Shown: positions 864-39,659 of the stretch, piece after piece
How the letters are laid out: every line of letters begins with the position of its first letter
Position numbering within the stretch: the stretch's first letter is position 1
NCBI GenBank assembly: GCA_900546825.1
Contig: UREE01000001.1
Coordinates: 1,733 to 65,732, forward strand
Reading direction: 5' to 3'
DNA length: 64,000 nucleotides
Origin: an uncultured Collinsella sp.
Lineage (GTDB): Bacteria > Actinomycetota > Coriobacteriia > Coriobacteriales > Coriobacteriaceae
The notes under the pieces: model-generated
What the model was told of the DNA's origin: nothing
What the model saw: the letters and a program-made list of their open reading frames with translations, nothing else
The model's database searches: none
Translations under genes and position numbers: made by a program

Positions 864-3689
864 TTACCCCGTGTTCTGCAATCCTGCCGAGACGCCGGTC
901 ACAGTCGAAAGAATCAGGCTCATGTACTCGGCCTTCTTCTCCTCGGCCATCTCGTCCTGGTTCATACGCACCTCGCGAAGGGCGCGAACCTGGGCGATGG
1001 ATAGGGCGTCAACATAGGGGTTACGCACGCGGACGGCGCAGCCGAGCACGCGACGACGCTGCAGCGGCCATTCATCACCGACGATGGCAAGGACCCACTT
1101 ACGGGTGAGCTGCATCTCGGTAAAGACCTTCTCGGACAGATCCTGGCGATCGCCCAGGTGCAGATACATCTTGGCGATGCGCTGGTCGGTCTTGGCGATC
1201 GACATCTCGATGTTGTCGATAAAGGTGCGGAAGAACGGCCACTCCTGGTAGGCAGCCTTAAGCTGGTCCAGATCGCCAAACTGCTCGCAGGCGGTACCCA
1301 GGCCGTACCAGGCGGCCAGATTGATGCGCGCCTGGCTCCAGCTGAAGATCCACGGAATGGTACGCAGGTCGTCGAGCGACTTGGCACCCAAACCGCGCTT
1401 GGCGGGACGCGAGCCGATTGGCAGCAGACCGACCTCGGTCAGCGGCGTCACGGTCGAGAACCACGGTGTAAAGTCCTCGGTGTTCAGCAGGTCCAGATAG
1501 CGCTCGTGGCTTACGGCGTTGAGCTTCTCGGCCATATCCCAGAACTTCTGCGTGGTCTCGGTGTTGGTCTTCTCGACGCTCGGGGCCGACTGCAAAAGCG
1601 TTGCGGCGGCAACGGACTCAACATGGCGCTGAGCCAGCGTGCGGTTGCCGTAACGGGCAAAGATGACCTCGCCCTGCTCGGTGAGCTTAAAGAAGCAGTT
1701 GACCGAACCCTTGGGCTGCGCCAGCACGGCCTTGTTGGCCGGGCCGCCACCACGGCCCACGGCACCGCCGCGACCGTGCATGAGCACCAGGTCGATATCG
1801 TTCTTCTCGGCCCACTTGGCAATGCGCTCCTGCGCGGAGTGCAGCGCGAGCATGGCCGTGGTAGGACCGGCATCCTTGGAGGAGTCGGAATAGCCCAGCA
1901 TGACCTCCATGCGGCGGTTGGTCTGGGCAAGGCGCTTTTGCACCACGGGCAGCGTAAGCATCTGGTCGAGCACGTCGACGCAGCCCTCGAGGTCCTCGAG
2001 CTGCTCGAACAGCGGGATCACGTCGAGCTCGGGCACGTCCTCCTCGTGCGCAAAGGACAGGTGGGCAAGCTCAAAGACGTCGGCCACATGCTGAGCGCTC
2101 TTGGTGAACGAGATGATGTAGCGGTGCGCCATCTTCTTGCCGTAGCGCTTTTGGATGGAGCCGATAGCGCGGAAGGTGTCGATGACCTCGCGCGTCATGG
2201 GCTGCAAATCACCATGGATACCGTTCTCGTGAATATCCTTGAGGGCGCGGGCGTGCACCACGGAGTGCTGACGGAACTCCATCTCGACCATATGGAAGCC
2301 GAAGGACTCGACCTGCCAGATGATGGTCTGGACCGGGCCGTAGGCAGCACGGACGGCACCGCAGGCGGCCAGCGAGCGCTGGACGACGCGCAGGTCCTCC
2401 AGGAACTCATCGGCGCTGTGGTACATGGTGTCGGTGATGCGACGCACGGTGGCGTTCAGACGGTCGGCCATGACGAGCATGACGGCGCGATGCGGCTCGT
2501 GCTCGGAAATCAGCTCGGCGCGAGCCGTGTACTGGGTGCTCATCTCGACCTGATGGTTCCACAGGTTGATGAGCTCGGCAGACGGCTTGCTGTAGGTGGC
2601 CTCGAGCGTAAGGTTGCGGCCAATGCGGCGGCACTTGTCCTCGAGCTTGAGCACCATGTGGGTGAAGTACTTGGCGGCGACCTCACGGCTCACCTTGGCG
2701 GTGACGTTGGGGTTACCGTCGCGGTCGGAACCGATCCAGCTGCCGGGATGGAAGAACGCCGGGCACAGCGGCGGCACGGTACCGGCCTTGTCGCCCAGCA
2801 CCCAGTCGTCAAAGCGACGATAAATGACGGGGATGACGTCGAACAGCGTGTTATCGAAGATGTCGATGATGGTATCGGCTTCCTCGACCGGCGTGGGCTT
2901 CTTGAGCGCGATGGGGCTCGTACGCACCAGGGCGTCGATCTCCTGCAGCATATGGCGCTCGTTCTCCACCAGGTCGGAGCCGCCCAGACGCGGACGCTCC
3001 TCCAGCAGGTTGGAGATACGGCGAATCTTGCCCTCGACGGCCTTACGACGGGCCTCGGTGGGATGCGCGGTAAAGACGGGATGGAACTCAAGCTTGCCGA
3101 GCAGCTCGTTTGCGCCCTCGACGCCCAGCTCATTCACCAGCTGGTGATAGGCGACGGTGAGCTCGTTGGCGGGATCGACCTCGGTATCGGTTGACGCACC
3201 GGCCTCGCGCTCGCGCAGCTGCGCCACACGGTAGTTCTCCTCCGACAGGTTTGCCAGGTGGAAGAAGCTCGTAAAGGCGCGAACGATGACCTGCTGCTTA
3301 TCGAGCGGCAGGCTGTCGATCAGATCGACGACCTCACGGAATGCCACGGCGGTGGACTCGTCGGCAGTAGGCACGCCCTGCTCGTCGACGGCCTCGTCGG
3401 CAGCACGCGTACCGGGGTTGCCGGCATTGGCCACAATCTCGGCCAACAGGATTTTGTCGAACAGGTCCGCGATCTCAGGATCATACTCGCTAAGCACACG
3501 ACGCTCCAGGCGCAGGAACAGCGCCAGATTGTCGCGCAGCTCCTCGGGGATCTCGATCTCGGCGAGACGCTCCCTGGACTCGGCATTCGAGCCGATTCGG
3601 TTAACGAGGCGGTTGACCACGGCAGCGACGCGCGCCGCGGCTTCGGGTACAGACTGGTTGCTTAGGTTCTCAGCCACGTTTCCTCCCAT
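864..3689 (-). CDS. ppc: phosphoenolpyruvate carboxylase
   Basis: 941 aa; catalytic MHGRGGAVGRGGGP motif; C-terminal ...QNTG hallmark of PEPC. Confidence 0.95.
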   Translation of the reverse strand: MGGNVAENLSNQSVPEAAARVAAVVNRLVNRIGSNAESRERLAEIEIPEELRDNLALFLRLERRVLSEYDPEIADLFDKILLAEIVANAGNPGTRAADEAVDEQGVPTADESTAVAFREVVDLIDSLPLDKQQVIVRAFTSFFHLANLSEENYRVAQLREREAGASTDTEVDPANELTVAYHQLVNELGVEGANELLGKLEFHPVFTAHPTEARRKAVEGKIRRISNLLEERPRLGGSDLVENERHMLQEIDALVRTSPIALKKPTPVEEADTIIDIFDNTLFDVIPVIYRRFDDWVLGDKAGTVPPLCPAFFHPGSWIGSDRDGNPNVTAKVSREVAAKYFTHMVLKLEDKCRRIGRNLTLEATYSKPSAELINLWNHQVEMSTQYTARAELISEHEPHRAVMLVMADRLNATVRRITDTMYHSADEFLEDLRVVQRSLAACGAVRAAYGPVQTIIWQVESFGFHMVEMEFRQHSVVHARALKDIHENGIHGDLQPMTREVIDTFRAIGSIQKRYGKKMAHRYIISFTKSAQHVADVFELAHLSFAHEEDVPELDVIPLFEQLEDLEGCVDVLDQMLTLPVVQKRLAQTNRRMEVMLGYSDSSKDAGPTTAMLALHSAQERIAKWAEKNDIDLVLMHGRGGAVGRGGGPANKAVLAQPKGSVNCFFKLTEQGEVIFARYGNRTLAQRHVESVAAATLLQSAPSVEKTNTETTQKFWDMAEKLNAVSHERYLDLLNTEDFTPWFSTVTPLTEVGLLPIGSRPAKRGLGAKSLDDLRTIPWIFSWSQARINLAAWYGLGTACEQFGDLDQLKAAYQEWPFFRTFIDNIEMSIAKTDQRIAKMYLHLGDRQDLSEKVFTEMQLTRKWVLAIVGDEWPLQRRRVLGCAVRVRNPYVDALSIAQVRALREVRMNQDEMAEEKKAEYMSLILSTVTGVSAGLQNTG

Positions 3690-8563: not shown

Positions 8564-10753
8564 CTAGATCAACTTAGTCGACTCCAGCTTTTCGATGATC
8601 CAGTCGTTGGCTTTGATGACCGGGCGGCGGAAGACGACGCCCAGTGCCAGCGACGGAATCAGATAGCTCGCCAAGATACCCAGCTCAATCCAGTACTCCA
8701 TATGGTAGGCGCCAGCCATGGCGGCATGCATGGCGTTGATGCCGTGGGTGAACGGCAGGAACGGATAGATCGCCTGGAACACGGGGCCGGTCATCTCGAT
8801 GGGGAACGTGCCGCCCGAACCGCCGACCTGCATGACCAGCAGCACGACGGCGAGCGCCTTGCCGATATCGCCAAACGACACGGTGAGCGTGTAGACGATA
8901 TTGGAGAACACGAGACTCGCGACCCAGCCCGCCAGCACAAACTGCAGCGGGTTGTCGCACTGAATGCCAAAGAACAGAATGTCGCCCGCGCACACGAGCG
9001 TTGCCTGCAGCAGGGCCAAACCGCCAAAGAACAGGTAACGGCCCAGATAGATCTCGTGCAGGCGTACGGGGATGAGCTCGTTGATAAGTTCATCGTCAAC
9101 CGACACCTTCATCATGGCTGCCAGCACGATCGAGCCGACCCAAAGCGACAGAATCGTGTAGAACGGCGCCATGGCCGAACCGTAGTTGCGGATCGGATAG
9201 ACCGGCTTGCGATCGAGCGCGACGGGACCGGAAAGCGACACGGCCAAACCCTCGGGGTCGTTGCCAATCATCGTCTTGATCGTGGCAAGGTCGTCCGACA
9301 TCAGGGCGCCATCGAGCTCGTCCTTAAAGGCGCTGATCTTGTCCGATGCCTCACCCAGCTGATCGGAAGCCTTGTTGACCAGCGTCGCAGCCTTGGAGAG
9401 GCCCTTTGCGAGCGAGCCAGAGGCGTCGGTCAGACCGCTCACGGCGCTATCCAAGTCACCCGAGATACCGTTCAGGGAATCCAGAACGCCCGAAATGGTC
9501 TTCTTGAGCTCCTTGGCCTTAACCGAGAACGTGGAATCGTAGTCGGACTTGGCTCCCGAGATACCCGCCTTGGCATCGGCGATGGCCTGGTCGACCTCGG
9601 CACGCGAGTTGTTGACCTCCGCCATGCCGTCCGAAAGGGACTTTGCGGTCGCCGTCAGGTCCTTCGCATTGTTGCGGTACTCCACGGCAATTCTGCCCAG
9701 CGACGTCGCAGCGGACTCGAGACCGTCTTTGAGCTTGTCATCACTCACCTGGTCGGCAAGGTTACGGAGCTGATCGGTCATCGCATCGATATCGTCAGCA
9801 CGCGTATTGAGCGCCGCTGCGGCTTCGTTGAGCTGAGACACCGTAAGGTAAACATGCTGATTCGCGGCATCGAATGCCTTCGCAAGCTCGGCGGACACGT
9901 TGTCGAACGAGCCCGCGCTTCCGTCAATCGCCGCGTCAACGGCATCGTTGGCGGCCTTGAGCGCTTCCTTGGAATCATTGATGCCACTCTTGGCGTGCTC
10001 CATCAGCTGCTTCGTCGACTCATCAACGGTGCCCGTCTGCTTGAGCATGCCGCCCGCCGATGTCAGTGAATCGGACGTGGAGCTCAAAATGCCCGCGAGC
10101 GACGTCGCACTCGCCTGAACGTCCTGCAGGTCCTCGACCGAATCGCCCAGCGTCGAGGACAGATTGGCGATAAAGCTGCTCACCTGGTCGGTACTCATAT
10201 AGTCGAGCAGGCTGGACACGGTCTTAAGGCCGATGGTCGTGATGGTCTTGGTAAAGGTCTCGTTGACCTGACTCTGGACGGCGCTCGAACCCTTTTCAGT
10301 CACGATCTGTGCGATGGCGTTGGCCTTCTGATTCTCATAGAACTCGATATCGGCGTGCTTCACCTCGGTCGAGAAAAGCGTCATCATGTCGGCGCTAAAC
10401 GTTTTAGGGATAACGACGGCAGCGTAGTACGCGCCCGACTTAACGCCCTCAATCGCCTTATCACGGTCGTTGAGGACGACCCAGTCGAAGTTCTCGTTGC
10501 CGCGCAGGGTGGCGGTTACGTTTTCGCCCACGTTGACCTCGACGGGAATCAGATCGCTCTCGTAACCCTCATCGGTGTTGACCACTGCAATCTTAAGGTT
10601 GCCGGTATTGCCGTAGGGATCCCAGCTTCCGGCGATGTTAAACCATGCATAGAGACATGGCACGATGATCAGGCCCATCACGACGACCATGCCGATCACG
10701 GAGCGAGACACGTTTTGGACATCGCGCTTAAACAGGTGCAGGATGTTTTTCAT
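8564..10753 (-). CDS. YhgE/Pip-domain membrane protein (phage-infection-protein / EsaA-like), copy 2 of a tandem pair
   Basis: 729 aa. N-terminus FKRDVQNVSRSVIGMVVVMGLIIVPCLYAWFNIAGSWDPYGNTGNLKIAVVNTDEGY is the canonical YhgE/Pip N-terminal domain. Long extracellular coiled-coil middle and C-terminal ABC-2-like TM bundle. Its start ATG directly abuts the stop of the upstream paralog (TAAATG). Confidence 0.85.
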   Translation of the reverse strand: MKNILHLFKRDVQNVSRSVIGMVVVMGLIIVPCLYAWFNIAGSWDPYGNTGNLKIAVVNTDEGYESDLIPVEVNVGENVTATLRGNENFDWVVLNDRDKAIEGVKSGAYYAAVVIPKTFSADMMTLFSTEVKHADIEFYENQKANAIAQIVTEKGSSAVQSQVNETFTKTITTIGLKTVSSLLDYMSTDQVSSFIANLSSTLGDSVEDLQDVQASATSLAGILSSTSDSLTSAGGMLKQTGTVDESTKQLMEHAKSGINDSKEALKAANDAVDAAIDGSAGSFDNVSAELAKAFDAANQHVYLTVSQLNEAAAALNTRADDIDAMTDQLRNLADQVSDDKLKDGLESAATSLGRIAVEYRNNAKDLTATAKSLSDGMAEVNNSRAEVDQAIADAKAGISGAKSDYDSTFSVKAKELKKTISGVLDSLNGISGDLDSAVSGLTDASGSLAKGLSKAATLVNKASDQLGEASDKISAFKDELDGALMSDDLATIKTMIGNDPEGLAVSLSGPVALDRKPVYPIRNYGSAMAPFYTILSLWVGSIVLAAMMKVSVDDELINELIPVRLHEIYLGRYLFFGGLALLQATLVCAGDILFFGIQCDNPLQFVLAGWVASLVFSNIVYTLTVSFGDIGKALAVVLLVMQVGGSGGTFPIEMTGPVFQAIYPFLPFTHGINAMHAAMAGAYHMEYWIELGILASYLIPSLALGVVFRRPVIKANDWIIEKLESTKLI

Positions 10754-25637: not shown

Positions 25638-25660
25638 AGGGTTCGAATCCCCAGCCGCCA
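25637..25660 (+). repeat. inverted partial copy of the tRNA-Ser 3' end (T-arm plus acceptor plus CCA)
   Basis: GAGGGTTCGAATCCCCAGCCGCCA versus the tRNA-Ser 3' end GGGGTTCGAATCCCCAGCTCTCCGCCA, which lies on the opposite strand 50 bp away. Confidence 0.5.
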
Positions 25661-25710: not shown

Positions 25711-25801
25711 TGGCGGAGAGCTGGGGATTCGAACCCCAGATGCCCTTTTGGGGCATACTCGCTTAGCAGGCGAGCACCTTCGGCCTCTCGGTCAGCTCTC
25801 C
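25711..25801 (-). tRNA. tRNA-Ser (anticodon GCT)
   Basis: 91 nt; GGAGAGC acceptor stem, anticodon loop CTGCTAA, long variable arm, GGTTCGAATCC T-arm, encoded CCA. Confidence 0.9.
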
Positions 25802-28450: not shown

Positions 28451-28708
28451 AGCTGGCGCAAAAGAAAAGCCCCCGTTGCCGGGAGCTTTAATCTCAAATG
28501 GTGCGGCGTATAGGATTCCGCGCATCCGCTGCGCGGATCCGCACCGGCTTCGCCCGCCTGCCGGCGGACTCGCCCGCTCGCTAAAAACGCTCCGCGTTTT
28601 CTTGACGCTCGCGCCTCGACCGAGGTTCGAATCCATGCGGTGGCGGCATAAAAGAAAAGCCCCCGTTGCCGGAGGCTTTCAATTTCAATTGGTGCGGCGT
28701 ATAGGATT
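28451..28708. repeat. tRNA-Arg-associated structure: 59-bp direct repeat (terminator plus tRNA-Arg 3' 20 nt), 138-bp GC-rich unit, second copy of the repeat that runs into the intact tRNA
   Basis: Copy A 28451-28509 (aaaagaaaagcccccgttgccgggagctttaatctcaaatggtgcggcgtataggattc) versus copy B 28648-28708 (aaaagaaaagcccccgttgccggaggctttcaatttcaattggtgcggcgtataggattc). The intervening unit is about 80% identical to the unit at 33496-33627. Confidence 0.8.
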
Positions 28709-28765
28709 CGAACCTATGACGTTCTGATTCGTAGTCAGACCCTCTATCCAGCTGAGGTAACGCCG
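28689..28765 (-). tRNA. tRNA-Arg (anticodon ACG)
   Basis: 77 nt; GCGGCGT/ACGCCGC acceptor, anticodon loop CTACGAA, GGTTCGAATCC T-arm, CCA encoded. Confidence 0.9.
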
Positions 28766-28843
28766 CAGCGCAAGACATATAAAACCACTTTAGCTTATTG
28801 GAGTCAAGCACAATTTCAAACTTTTTTGTGGAACGCAGTCTTG

Positions 28844-30961: not shown

Positions 30962-31113
30962 CCTGCCAAAAAGGGACAGGTTTATTTTGGTCGGTTTTAT
31001 CTGGGCAAACGCAAGTGCCTCGCAACTGGAATTGAGCCAGTTGCGGGGCACTTTTCGCTAAAAGGACAAAACCGCAGGAAAAACCTGCCAACATAAACCT
31101 GTCCCTTTTTTGG
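30962..31113. repeat. nested hairpin / flanked-inverted-core repeat between the small ORF and proC (bidirectional terminator candidate)
   Basis: cctgccaa-AAAGGGACAGGTTTAT-tttggtcggtttta (30962-31000) and cctgccaac-ATAAACCTGTCCCTTT-tttggtcggtttta (31084-31123 region): identical flanks with the 16-bp core inverted. Inner IR gcctcgcaactgg/ccagttgcggggc. Confidence 0.6.
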
Positions 31114-33400: not shown

Positions 33401-33440
33401 ACGTTGCCATTAGGATACCCGTCCAAGGAGATCGTGCATA

Positions 33441-33684
33441 ACAAAAAGCCCCCATTGCTGGGAGCTCTTTCATTTAATGGTGCGGGCGAAAGGACGTCCG
33501 CGTATCCGCTTCGCGGATCCGCACCGGCATCGGCCGCCTGCCGGCGTCCTTGCCAGCTCGCTAAAAACGCTCCGCGTTTTCTTGACGCTCGCTCCTTCGC
33601 AGGTTCAAGTCCCCGCGATGGGCACATAACAAAAAAGCTCCCATTGCTGGGAGCTCTTTCATTTAATGGTGCGGGCGAAAGGAC
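33441..33684. repeat. tRNA-Leu-associated structure: 55-bp direct repeat (terminator plus tRNA-Leu 3' 18 nt), 132-bp GC-rich unit, second repeat copy that runs into the intact tRNA
   Basis: Copy A 33441-33495 (acaaaaagcccccattgctgggagctctttcatttaatggtgcgggcgaaaggac) versus copy B 33628-33684 (aacaaaaaagctcccattgctgggagctctttcatttaatggtgcgggcgaaaggac). The unit shares GCGGATCCGCACCGGC...GCTCGCTAAAAACGCTCCGCGTTTTCTTGACGCTCGC with the 28510-28647 unit. Confidence 0.8.
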
Positions 33685-33753
33685 TTGAACCTTCATGGGG
33701 TTGCCCCCATACGGACCTGAACCGTACGCGTCTGCCAATTCCGCCACGCCCGC
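33667..33753 (-). tRNA. tRNA-Leu (anticodon CAG)
   Basis: 87 nt; anticodon loop TTCAGGT, long variable arm TGGGGGCAACCCCA, GGTTCAAGTCC T-arm, CCA encoded. Confidence 0.9.

Positions 33754-39584: not shown

Positions 39585-39659
<75 letters not shown>

Follow-up and report, generated by a model that had tools for sequence, protein, structure and literature searches.

Small structured non-coding elements of an apparently undescribed family behind two tRNA genes of an uncultured Collinsella and at other tRNA and tmRNA 3′ ends

What lies behind the tRNA-Arg(ACG) gene of an uncultured Collinsella sp., and why does the same arrangement recur about 5 kb away behind tRNA-Leu(CAG)? The window analysed in this study is a stretch of 64,000 nucleotides (assembly GCA_900546825.1, contig UREE01000001.1, positions 1,733 to 65,732), in which each of the two genes is followed by a unit of about 130 nt and a second copy of its own 3′ end. 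The tails of tRNA and transfer-messenger RNA (tmRNA) genes are classic landing sites for genomic islands and prophages. Here, they hold a gene-less, strongly folded element of 130 nt that contains a copy of its target's T-arm. Both loci belong to an apparently undescribed family of small non-coding structured elements located at the 3′ ends of tRNA and tmRNA genes in gut Coriobacteriia. The reading that we favor, with about as much confidence as doubt, is that they are copies of a non-autonomous structured element that targets the T-loop.

Four tRNA genes were placed in the window by ARAGORN, specific for Ser(GCT), Arg(ACG), Leu(CAG), and Phe(GAA), and all are on the minus strand (Table 1). 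At both the Arg and the Leu locus, the order in tRNA sense was intact tRNA, terminator, unit, and second tail with terminator, on the minus strand in each case, as described in a first-pass annotation of this DNA. The two units are homologous, as that annotation proposed, at an identity higher than its estimate of about 80%: 91% over an ungapped core of 100 nt (28517–28616 at Arg and 33497–33596 at Leu) and 85% over 127 nt. A 37-nt block common to both units occurred exactly twice in the window and in 0 of 100 shuffles, and a covariance model built from 19 diverse copies of the family detected only the Arg and Leu copies in the 64-kb window, both on the minus strand. The repeats are spaced 190 bp apart at Arg and 189 bp apart at Leu. 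The duplicated segments reported at both loci are genuine tRNA 3′ ends beginning in the T-loop; the duplication is not clean at Arg, where repeats 1 and 2 differ at approximately 6 of 59 positions. The host-specific inverted T-arm segments were likewise found to be real.

Table 1. Coordinates of tRNA genes, unit parts, and flanking repeats in the window
Feature	Position	Strand	Remarks
tRNA-Ser(GCT)	25711–25801	−	ARAGORN
Solo inverted tRNA-Ser(GCT) 3′ end	25639–25660	−	TGGCGGCTGGGGATTCGAACCC; beyond the tRNA-Ser(GCT) terminator
tRNA-Arg(ACG), intact host gene	28690–28766	−	ARAGORN; Rfam tRNA, 66 bits
Arg direct repeat 1	28650–28709	−	last 18–20 nt of tRNA (from T-loop), trailer, intrinsic terminator
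Arg repeat 1, intrinsic terminator	28655–28680	−	
Arg unit	~28519–28649	−	about 131 nt; 91% identical to Leu unit core
Arg unit, covariance-model match	28505–28642	−	128 bits
Inverted copy of tRNA-Arg T-arm	28623–28634	−	plus strand, AGGTTCGAATCC; tRNA-sense strand, GGATTCGAACCT
Arg H2	28576–28612	−	outer stem GCGAGC/GCGAGC (tandem G.A pair) around AAGAAAACGC-GGA-GCGTTTTTAGC
Arg H3 hairpin	28552–28569	−	tRNA sense, GTCCGCC-GGCA-GGCGGGC
Arg H4 hairpin	28520–28542	−	tRNA sense, GCGGATCCGC-GCA-GCGGATGCGC
Arg direct repeat 2	28460–28518	−	tRNA tail 28499–28518 (18–20 nt), trailer, terminator 28466–28489
tRNA-Leu(CAG), intact host gene	33667–33753	−	ARAGORN; Rfam
Leu direct repeat 1	33625–33684	−	tRNA nt 59–76, trailer, terminator, GTTATG
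Leu unit	33496–33624	−	about 129 nt; RNA fold z = −3.66
Leu unit, covariance-model match	33485–33620	−	139 bits
Inverted T-arm at Leu	33601–33612	−	AGGTTCAAGTCC
Leu H2	33556–33592	−	
Leu H3	33532–33549	−	
Leu H4	33500–33522	−	
Leu direct repeat 2	33437–33495	−	exactly the last 18 nt of tRNA (33478–33495), trailer, terminator, GTTATG
tRNA-Phe(GAA)	39585–39659	−	ARAGORN

The unit is not confined to the window. Scanning with a pattern of its conserved hairpin gave more than 117 loci among the genome matches listed, almost all in Collinsella, and at least 120 further metagenome contigs. Copies in Collinsella and its relatives exceed 300, and wherever the host gene lay inside the examined sequence, the unit was downstream of it and on the same strand. 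A regular-expression census, which covers the collected loci (cited below by L numbers), assigned units to the adjoining hosts Arg(ACG) (n = 169), Leu(CAG) (n = 104), Ser(GCT) (n = 29), Leu(TAA) (n = 2), Glu(TTC) (n = 1), and Leu(CAA) (n = 1). Units were also present behind tmRNA (three copies) and behind the 3′ half of a class-II tRNA in Slackia, and chimeric contigs add two further host tails. The proposal of a miniature non-autonomous element therefore holds in outline, the unit being discrete and homologous throughout, with the host tRNA always intact; it has at least nine host genes instead of the two proposed. Rfam searches of the whole window at gathering thresholds, of the two loci at E values up to 10, and of L278, L203, L097, L073, L110, and part of L098 scored only tRNAs, and no description of such an element was found by full-text literature search.

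The family members are non-coding, approximately 100–135 nt in size, and share one anatomy. In tRNA sense, the intact tRNA, its trailer, and its terminator are followed by a short hypervariable stretch, the hairpins H1, H2, H3, and H4, and the second host tail; the unit of the window's Arg locus shows a variable stretch x, the inverted T-arm, H1 to H4, and then ...GCGCGGA, and the 3′ end of units in the family reads ...GCGGAC. Repeat 1 consists of the real gene tail from the T-loop, the trailer, the terminator, and a further 0–20 nt. Repeat 2 is the host segment from the T-loop, mostly from nt 59, to beyond the terminator. Every complete copy is flanked by such repeats, with lengths from 59 to 93 bp (59–60 bp at Arg and Leu, 93 bp at Ser-GCT). 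Both flanks are thus specific for the host, the left one being an inverted T-arm and the right one a direct tail. The inverted T-arm, situated in or beside the H1 hairpin, is a reverse complement of 12–17 nt of the host's own T-arm and matches the local tRNA at every host; the identity extends over 17 nt at Glu, 16–17 nt at Leu-CAA and tmRNA, and 12 nt at Arg, Leu-CAG, and Leu-TAA. The only complementarity at the ends is one of 6–9 nt between the unit 5′ end and the flanking tRNA tail.

The inner hairpin of H2, AAGAAAACGC-GRA-GCGTTTTTAGC, is an invariant 26 nt common to copies at different tRNAs and in different genera; in the Ser(GCT) subfamily, it is replaced by the compensated variant CAAACGC-GAAA-GCGTTTG. 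Its outer stem alternates between the tandem-G.A form GCGAGC/GCGAGC and the Watson-Crick forms GCGGGC/GCCCGC, GAATTCGC/GCGAATTC, and CTTTTGGC/GCCGAAAG. The stems of H3 and H4 vary freely between lineages yet stay paired, and their loops are GGA, GAA, GCA, or GGCA closed by C-G (C-GNA-G loops).

Conservation of pairing was evident throughout the alignment. Compensatory changes were present in 22–23 of the 41 pairs of a hand-drawn structure, including 4 of 7 pairs in H3 and 8 of 10 in H4, the latter being the ATCCGC/GCGGAT palindrome noticed in the first-pass annotation. Paired cells amounted to 85–88%, compared with 27–44% when the partners were slid by 1–3 columns; none of 500 shuffles reached the observed values on four of five measures, and 19–22 of 500 did so for further pair types. 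RNAalifold independently recovered the same helices. A helix between the unit 5′ end and the first bases of repeat 2 also showed compensatory changes across hosts in 5 of 6 pairs; this covariation restates the tracking of each host tRNA by the inverted segment.

The structure belongs to one strand. The tRNA-sense strand folded better than the antisense strand by about 10 kcal/mol in 182 of 190 distinct copies, and the Leu unit as RNA has a dominant fold (Table 1). At one H1 stem position in orthologous Leu copies, G.T was found in 24 of 60 distinct copies and A.C in 1, as predicted by selection on the sense strand. These results point to the tRNA-sense strand, which is the template of the lagging strand, as the functional one, whether as RNA or as single-stranded DNA, and show that it is under structural selection. 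The earlier suggestion of a small structured RNA is accordingly upheld as far as a strongly structured nucleic acid is concerned, with no match in Rfam. The TTGACG hexamer that had been taken for a −35-like element varies in the family (GTCAAG, GTTAAG, GTAAAG, and GTAAGG), and no promoter was predicted in the unit.

With such a well-defined RNA fold, the unit could be a domesticated, host-functional RNA module, that is, a small RNA of the 3′ external-spacer type released by read-through or processing, whose anti-T-arm hairpin and 18-nt tail mimic would act on the cognate tRNA as a decoy or in quality control or processing. Functional tRNA 3′ trailers exist, for example 3′ETS-leuZ in Escherichia coli. 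Pairing is kept within vertically inherited orthologues, in which G.T is common and A.C nearly absent, and unit identity between genomes (0.92–0.97) resembles that of neighboring coding sequence and exceeds that of the flanking spacer (0.75–0.77). This extra conservation was considered as a proof of function and set aside as a weak test, because the whole locus is 0.9–1.0 identical among the sampled Collinsella. The unit is, however, dispensable: about half of the genomes lack it at Ser(GCT) and a few lack it at Leu(CAG), while the number of Arg copies varies. Between the tRNA and the unit stands a good terminator, no separate promoter is predicted for the unit, and homologous cores behind nine genes would still require past mobility. 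We regard a host function of this kind as quite unlikely.

Comparison of occupied and unoccupied sites showed what the unit adds. Unit-free tRNA-Leu(CAG) sites, as expected of empty sites, contain one repeat (L030, L113, L295, and L313), and they place the end of the Leu repeat 10 nt past the T-run, at GTTATGGGCC. At Ser(GCT) and in Slackia, the repeat ends exactly where the inverted T-arm ends. The unit and repeat also form tandem arrays with a period of 190 bp (L016, L051, L054, L106, and L111). In other Collinsella genomes, 2–4 tRNA-Arg(ACG) genes stand in tandem with a period of approximately 425 bp, each with its own promoter, terminator, and unit (L105 2989–4624; also L020, L049, L050, L054, L061, and L111). 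The two Arg repeats in the window have the terminator variants of the first and last members of such arrays, with that of the last tRNA-Arg in repeat 2. Because first-member and last-member variants are combined there, the Arg copy of the window is, judging from its terminators, probably a collapsed array and not a fresh insertion. The Leu copy is a plain single insertion.

A third site in the window, that of tRNA-Ser(GCT), has no unit. Beyond its terminator, it has a solo inverted copy of the tRNA 3′ end, which includes the complement of CCA and aligns to the tRNA with a 4-nt gap; the site equals one repeat still ending in the inverted T-arm. In about half of the other Collinsella genomes, a full divergent unit lies between repeats of 93 bp at this position; the rest keep the single repeat, as here. 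Since the full unit occupies the same site elsewhere, the solo form is best read as loss of the unit by recombination between the repeats.

The solo form, which has no core, speaks for an alternative in which the arrangement as a whole is a by-product of replication template switching at hairpins. A snap-back at the terminator and T-arm would copy the tail in direct, inverted, and again direct orientation, and a dedicated element would not be needed. The order of tail, terminator, inverted tail, and direct tail does correspond to the direct-inverted-direct pattern of the tandem inversion duplications reportedly modelled by the Roth laboratory, and the inverted copy is roughly symmetric about the terminator, with 22–25 nt on each side at Arg and Leu. 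What template switching leaves unexplained is a conserved, covarying core of about 100 nt at the same junction of nine genes in several genera, and the solo Ser(GCT) form has the better reading given above. A variant of this explanation, the scar left after excision of a larger island, which the first-pass annotation had offered, fails because independent deletions would differ in length and sequence and would not give the same size, the same architecture, and the invariant 26-nt hairpin at different tRNAs and in different genera. Conservation across the family has already largely refuted template switching, and we consider it and its variant highly improbable.

The borders of the duplication bear on how the unit may have arrived. 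The tRNA part of repeat 2 is exactly nt 59–76 (18 nt) at Leu-CAG, Leu-TAA, and Ser-GCT; the Glu copy shares the start at nt 59, but its match ends at nt 74. It comprises 18–20 nt at Arg and tmRNA, where the border is ambiguous, and 20–21 nt at Leu-CAA and in Slackia. At four to five hosts, the junction lies directly after TTCRA (nt 54–58). It is textbook knowledge of retroviruses that the tRNA primer is copied over 18 nt, ending at 1-methyladenosine 58 (m1A58). By analogy, the unit could be a retroelement-like entity copied through RNA by a reverse transcriptase encoded elsewhere, with the inverted tRNA 3′ end serving as primer-binding site, and a stop at m1A58 during reverse transcription of a tRNA or pre-tRNA template would place the start of the second tail at nt 59.

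The 18-nt tails and the start at nt 59 at Glu are consistent with such copying, as is the solo Ser(GCT) copy, which resembles a primer-binding site in reading TGG and the complement of the tRNA 3′ end. The succession of repeat, primer-binding-like site, internal part, and repeat resembles that of a long terminal repeat (LTR) element, and LTR retroelements including terminal-repeat retrotransposons in miniature (TRIM) likewise have direct repeats around a short internal part that begins with complementarity to a tRNA 3′ region and a tRNA-derived piece of 18 nt ending at position 59. An RNA intermediate would also fit the structure of the sense strand and its location behind very strongly transcribed genes, and incomplete copies, which lack the sense 3′ side, always keep the sense 5′ part.

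On the other hand, the repeats are host DNA (tRNA tail and terminator), unlike LTRs, and they run 6–20 nt past the T-run of the terminator, beyond the expected end of a transcript. A primer-binding site (TGG...) is nearly full at the solo Ser(GCT) copy, whereas most copies are complementary in the T-arm part only, the complementarity being centred on the T-arm instead of the CCA end and the CCA-proximal part being degenerate. The junction at nt 56–57 in Leu-CAA, Slackia, and possibly tmRNA does not fit a stop at m1A58. A polypurine tract and a short target duplication are absent, the host is a bacterium, and no reverse transcriptase was found in the loci examined. Copying by reverse transcription thus has, in our estimate, a slim chance.

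The repeats are accounted for best of all by a different route, which amounts to the tyrosine-recombinase integration proposed in the first-pass annotation. The unit would be a minimal integrase-dependent element, 'attP-only' or a cis-mobilizable element (CIME), with crossover in the T-loop by a tyrosine integrase whose gene lies elsewhere; the repeat would then be the segment identical in attP and attB, the unit a remnant of the attP arms, and excision would yield a 190-bp circle. Direct repeats of a tRNA or tmRNA 3′ end starting in the T-loop are the classical attL/attR signature, and such repeats were reportedly described by Williams in 2002 for tRNA-integrating islands. Like islands and CIMEs, the unit lies between these repeats with the tRNA intact, the unit-free site contains one repeat, and tandem accretion is seen. 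Beyond the terminator, the identity segment stops at no particular point. Larger islands appear to use the same genes, one lying upstream of the 3′ end of tmRNA in L235 and another upstream of the 3′ half of the tRNA in Slackia L098.

Nevertheless, several observations speak against this integration. The insert is only about 130 bp and has no gene, integrase, or arm-type repeats. The neighbors of the examined loci are housekeeping genes, with no integrase, transposase, or reverse transcriptase near them, although a distant integrase could still act in trans; no copy was detected in viral collections (IMG/VR pattern scans) or in phage and plasmid collections (distant-mode blastn). Double-stranded attP arms should show neither a strand asymmetry of 10 kcal/mol nor selection of G.T over A.C, and attP has no use for an inverted T-arm matched to the host. 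The invariant 26-nt H2 at nine targets and across genera is unlike the attP arms of different integrases. Finally, the element would have to carry the repeats, yet in L203 the repeats look like the host and the unit does not: the unit-bearing contig end has about 52% GC, the neighboring genes mostly have 39–48% and the host roughly 45%, and the repeats carry the host's own A/T-rich trailer and terminator. Three features are not accounted for by the integrase model: the structure confined to one strand, the inverted T-arm matched to the host, and the occurrence of host-like repeats on either side of a GC-richer unit. We consider an integrase-dependent origin unlikely.

We therefore favor the T-loop-targeting structured element named at the outset. 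It would have entered each host gene by a site-specific event at the T-loop, via a folded single strand, with the tRNA left intact because its 3′ segment ends up duplicated. It would act through the tRNA-sense strand, as single-stranded DNA or RNA, and H1 may recognize the target by base pairing with the T-arm. Having no genes of its own (no open reading frame is present in the 130-bp unit), the element would depend on a factor encoded elsewhere, and the main candidates for its mobilization are a single-strand route guided by base pairing and an integrase in trans. The single-strand route is preferred because neither the strand bias nor the host-matched inverted T-arm would follow from double-stranded att arms, and because one invariant hairpin is common to elements aimed at nine genes. 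The copies in Collinsella would now mostly be inherited vertically, be lost at times by recombination between the repeats, and be amplified along with tRNA-Arg tandem arrays, while selection would keep the hairpins of the unit.

Among known systems, palindrome-associated elements of the IS200/IS605 type and repetitive extragenic palindromes with their mosaic elements (REP/BIME) and REP-associated tyrosine transposases (RAYT) are comparable, in that they are small and non-coding and have hairpins that matter on one strand; in the unit, the hairpins show a sense-strand bias. The C-GNA-G triloops, which form very stable mini-hairpins in DNA, the insertion, at four to five hosts but not at Leu-CAA and Slackia and perhaps not at tmRNA, directly 3′ of the conserved pentanucleotide TTCRA of the T-loop, and the use of the lagging-strand template are further points of likeness. 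These elements differ from the unit in making no target duplication, compared with 59–93 bp duplicated here, and in using a guide of 4–5 nt, compared with a complementarity of 12–17 nt; no Y1/HUH transposase and no Rfam or sequence similarity was found here.

Type V-K CRISPR-associated transposons (CAST) home by guide next to tRNA genes, and they and IS110 make a target duplication of 5 bp or none. By analogy only, their short match to the tRNA gene a fixed few tens of bp upstream of the element, and the target-complementary loop of a structured, non-coding RNA-like part as in the IS110 bridge RNA, recall the unit, which has no transposase or Cas genes and no similarity to known guide or bridge RNAs. 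Group IIC introns also lie directly downstream of a terminator hairpin as a structured nucleic acid working in sense orientation; in contrast to them, the unit is far too small, has no domain V/VI, no intron boundary sequences, and no Rfam match, and is flanked by a duplication.

A more specific proposal can be made tentatively, as possible but doubtful: a new class of miniature mobile element that recognizes the T-arm by its own hairpin loop, passes through a folded intermediate of single-stranded DNA or RNA, and integrates at T-loop position 58/59 with duplication of tail and terminator, which would let the essential tRNA survive. The machinery could be a nuclease, an HUH enzyme, or a reverse transcriptase, provided by the host or distantly encoded.

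Several observations weigh against a T-loop-targeting mobile element. Leu-CAA, Slackia, and possibly tmRNA have the junction at nt 56–57 and not at 59. On its right-hand side, the duplication has no fixed end: it stops 0–20 nt past the terminator, its end coincides with that of the inverted T-arm at Ser(GCT) and Slackia, and it reaches into H2 at Arg. About half of the inverted T-arm (TYGAACC) complements a motif of nearly all tRNAs, so the strictly host-specific part is only 4–10 nt, and in some Arg copies the inverted segment GGAGATTCGAACC fits the host less well. The 'guide' role of H1 is one that we infer from complementarity alone, no promoter was predicted in the unit, and a mobilizing protein was not found at the loci examined. 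The age of the copies must be considered as well. Leu repeats 1 and 2 are 95.7% identical within genomes and 94.9% between genomes, and the pairs are identical in only 13% of genomes; the Leu copy is therefore old and vertically inherited. To judge from the repeats, none of the insertions appears recent and the Collinsella copies seem to be old residents, so that the unit-free sites could all be secondary losses by recombination between repeats.

The consequences differ with the explanation. If mobilization is by base pairing, the family would be a compact system that is retargeted naturally and has adapted to nine targets or more. It would also be a new source of tandem amplification and rearrangement of tRNA genes in a genus abundant in the human gut. 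As a parasite of integrases, it would be the smallest such satellite known, and as a functional RNA, it would represent a new class of RNAs linked to tRNAs, which combine a hairpin against the T-arm with a mimic of the 18-nt 3′ tail.

Other identities were tried and rejected. An antisense small-RNA gene with a tRNA-like 3′ end and a TTGACG promoter was dismissed on account of the poorer folding of the antisense strand, the variable hexamer, and the lack of a predicted promoter. For a tmRNA-like or minihelix acceptor formed by pairing of the unit ends, inspection showed that the stretch beside the inverted T-arm is hypervariable and unpaired with the acceptor strand. As for a miniature inverted-repeat transposable element (MITE) derived from a DDE transposon, the ends show no complementarity beyond the 6–9 nt mentioned above, and the duplication is 59–93 bp and of variable length, compared with the fixed 2–10 bp of such elements. 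Pattern matches in viral contigs were attributed to chance, since 16-mer matches were unrelated by BLAST and L320 was a coding region of an AT-rich phage. A metagenome pattern built to exclude the Collinsella copies gave no match. In L110, the supposed cargo, a sequence loosely like the unit start, runs into an ordinary gene for a membrane protein of 406 aa.

Some metagenome contigs (L220, L253, L205, and L289) combine a proximal half of the unit from one tRNA locus with a distal half and repeat 2 from another, in the combinations Leu/Arg, Leu/tmRNA, Arg/unknown, and Leu/unknown. They are either assembly chimeras formed via the 90–97% identical units or real recombinants between dispersed copies; as repeats of such identity, the units cause chimeric joins in Collinsella metagenome assemblies.

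Unrelated sequences were observed at several of the same genes. By tRNA-Leu(CAG) in L017 (2450–2720), L052, and L272, there is an AT-rich MITE of approximately 210 bp with terminal inverted repeats resembling GGCAAAAAATGTCAAATATGAGTACTG, which in some genomes adjoins the Leu unit or takes the place of its distal half; a supposed 'island' cargo of the unit at tRNA-Leu turned out to be this separate neighbor. In L066 (~6487, tRNA sense), the terminator loop of a tRNA-Arg copy is broken by foreign sequence that opens with an ORF (MAGNALYDVGMRLRAAELHDEG...) and looks like an insertion sequence. Unrelated sequence, AT-rich in L098, abuts the 3′ part of the tmRNA or tRNA before the unit in L235 (~3080–3290) and L098 (4460–4700; both tRNA sense), where larger islands appear to be integrated further upstream, near the 3′ end of the L235 tmRNA and near the anticodon loop of the Slackia L098 tRNA.

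A second, unrelated insert of about 190–220 nt follows the same logic at tRNA-Ser(CGA) (L278 ~2200–1900, and L231 ~9700–10040 from metagenome Ga0268262). Located behind the tRNA and terminator, it includes the T-loop and T-stem in inverted form (GGGGGGATTCGAA) as well as a region resembling a three-way junction with a GAAA loop, and a second tRNA tail from nt 57 comes next; it had no Rfam match. This suggests a broader class of elements.

The genes around the Arg and Leu loci in the window encode SerRS, ProC, RlmH, an SPFH protein, TatD, KsgA, and MetRS. Between the SerRS and ProC genes, at 30968–31110, a 36-nt inverted repeat (AAAAAGGGACAGGTTTATTTTGG...) with arms 86% complementary and 71 nt apart looks like another small MITE, and a similar motif, GACAGGTTTATTTTG, follows the tmRNA unit in L235.

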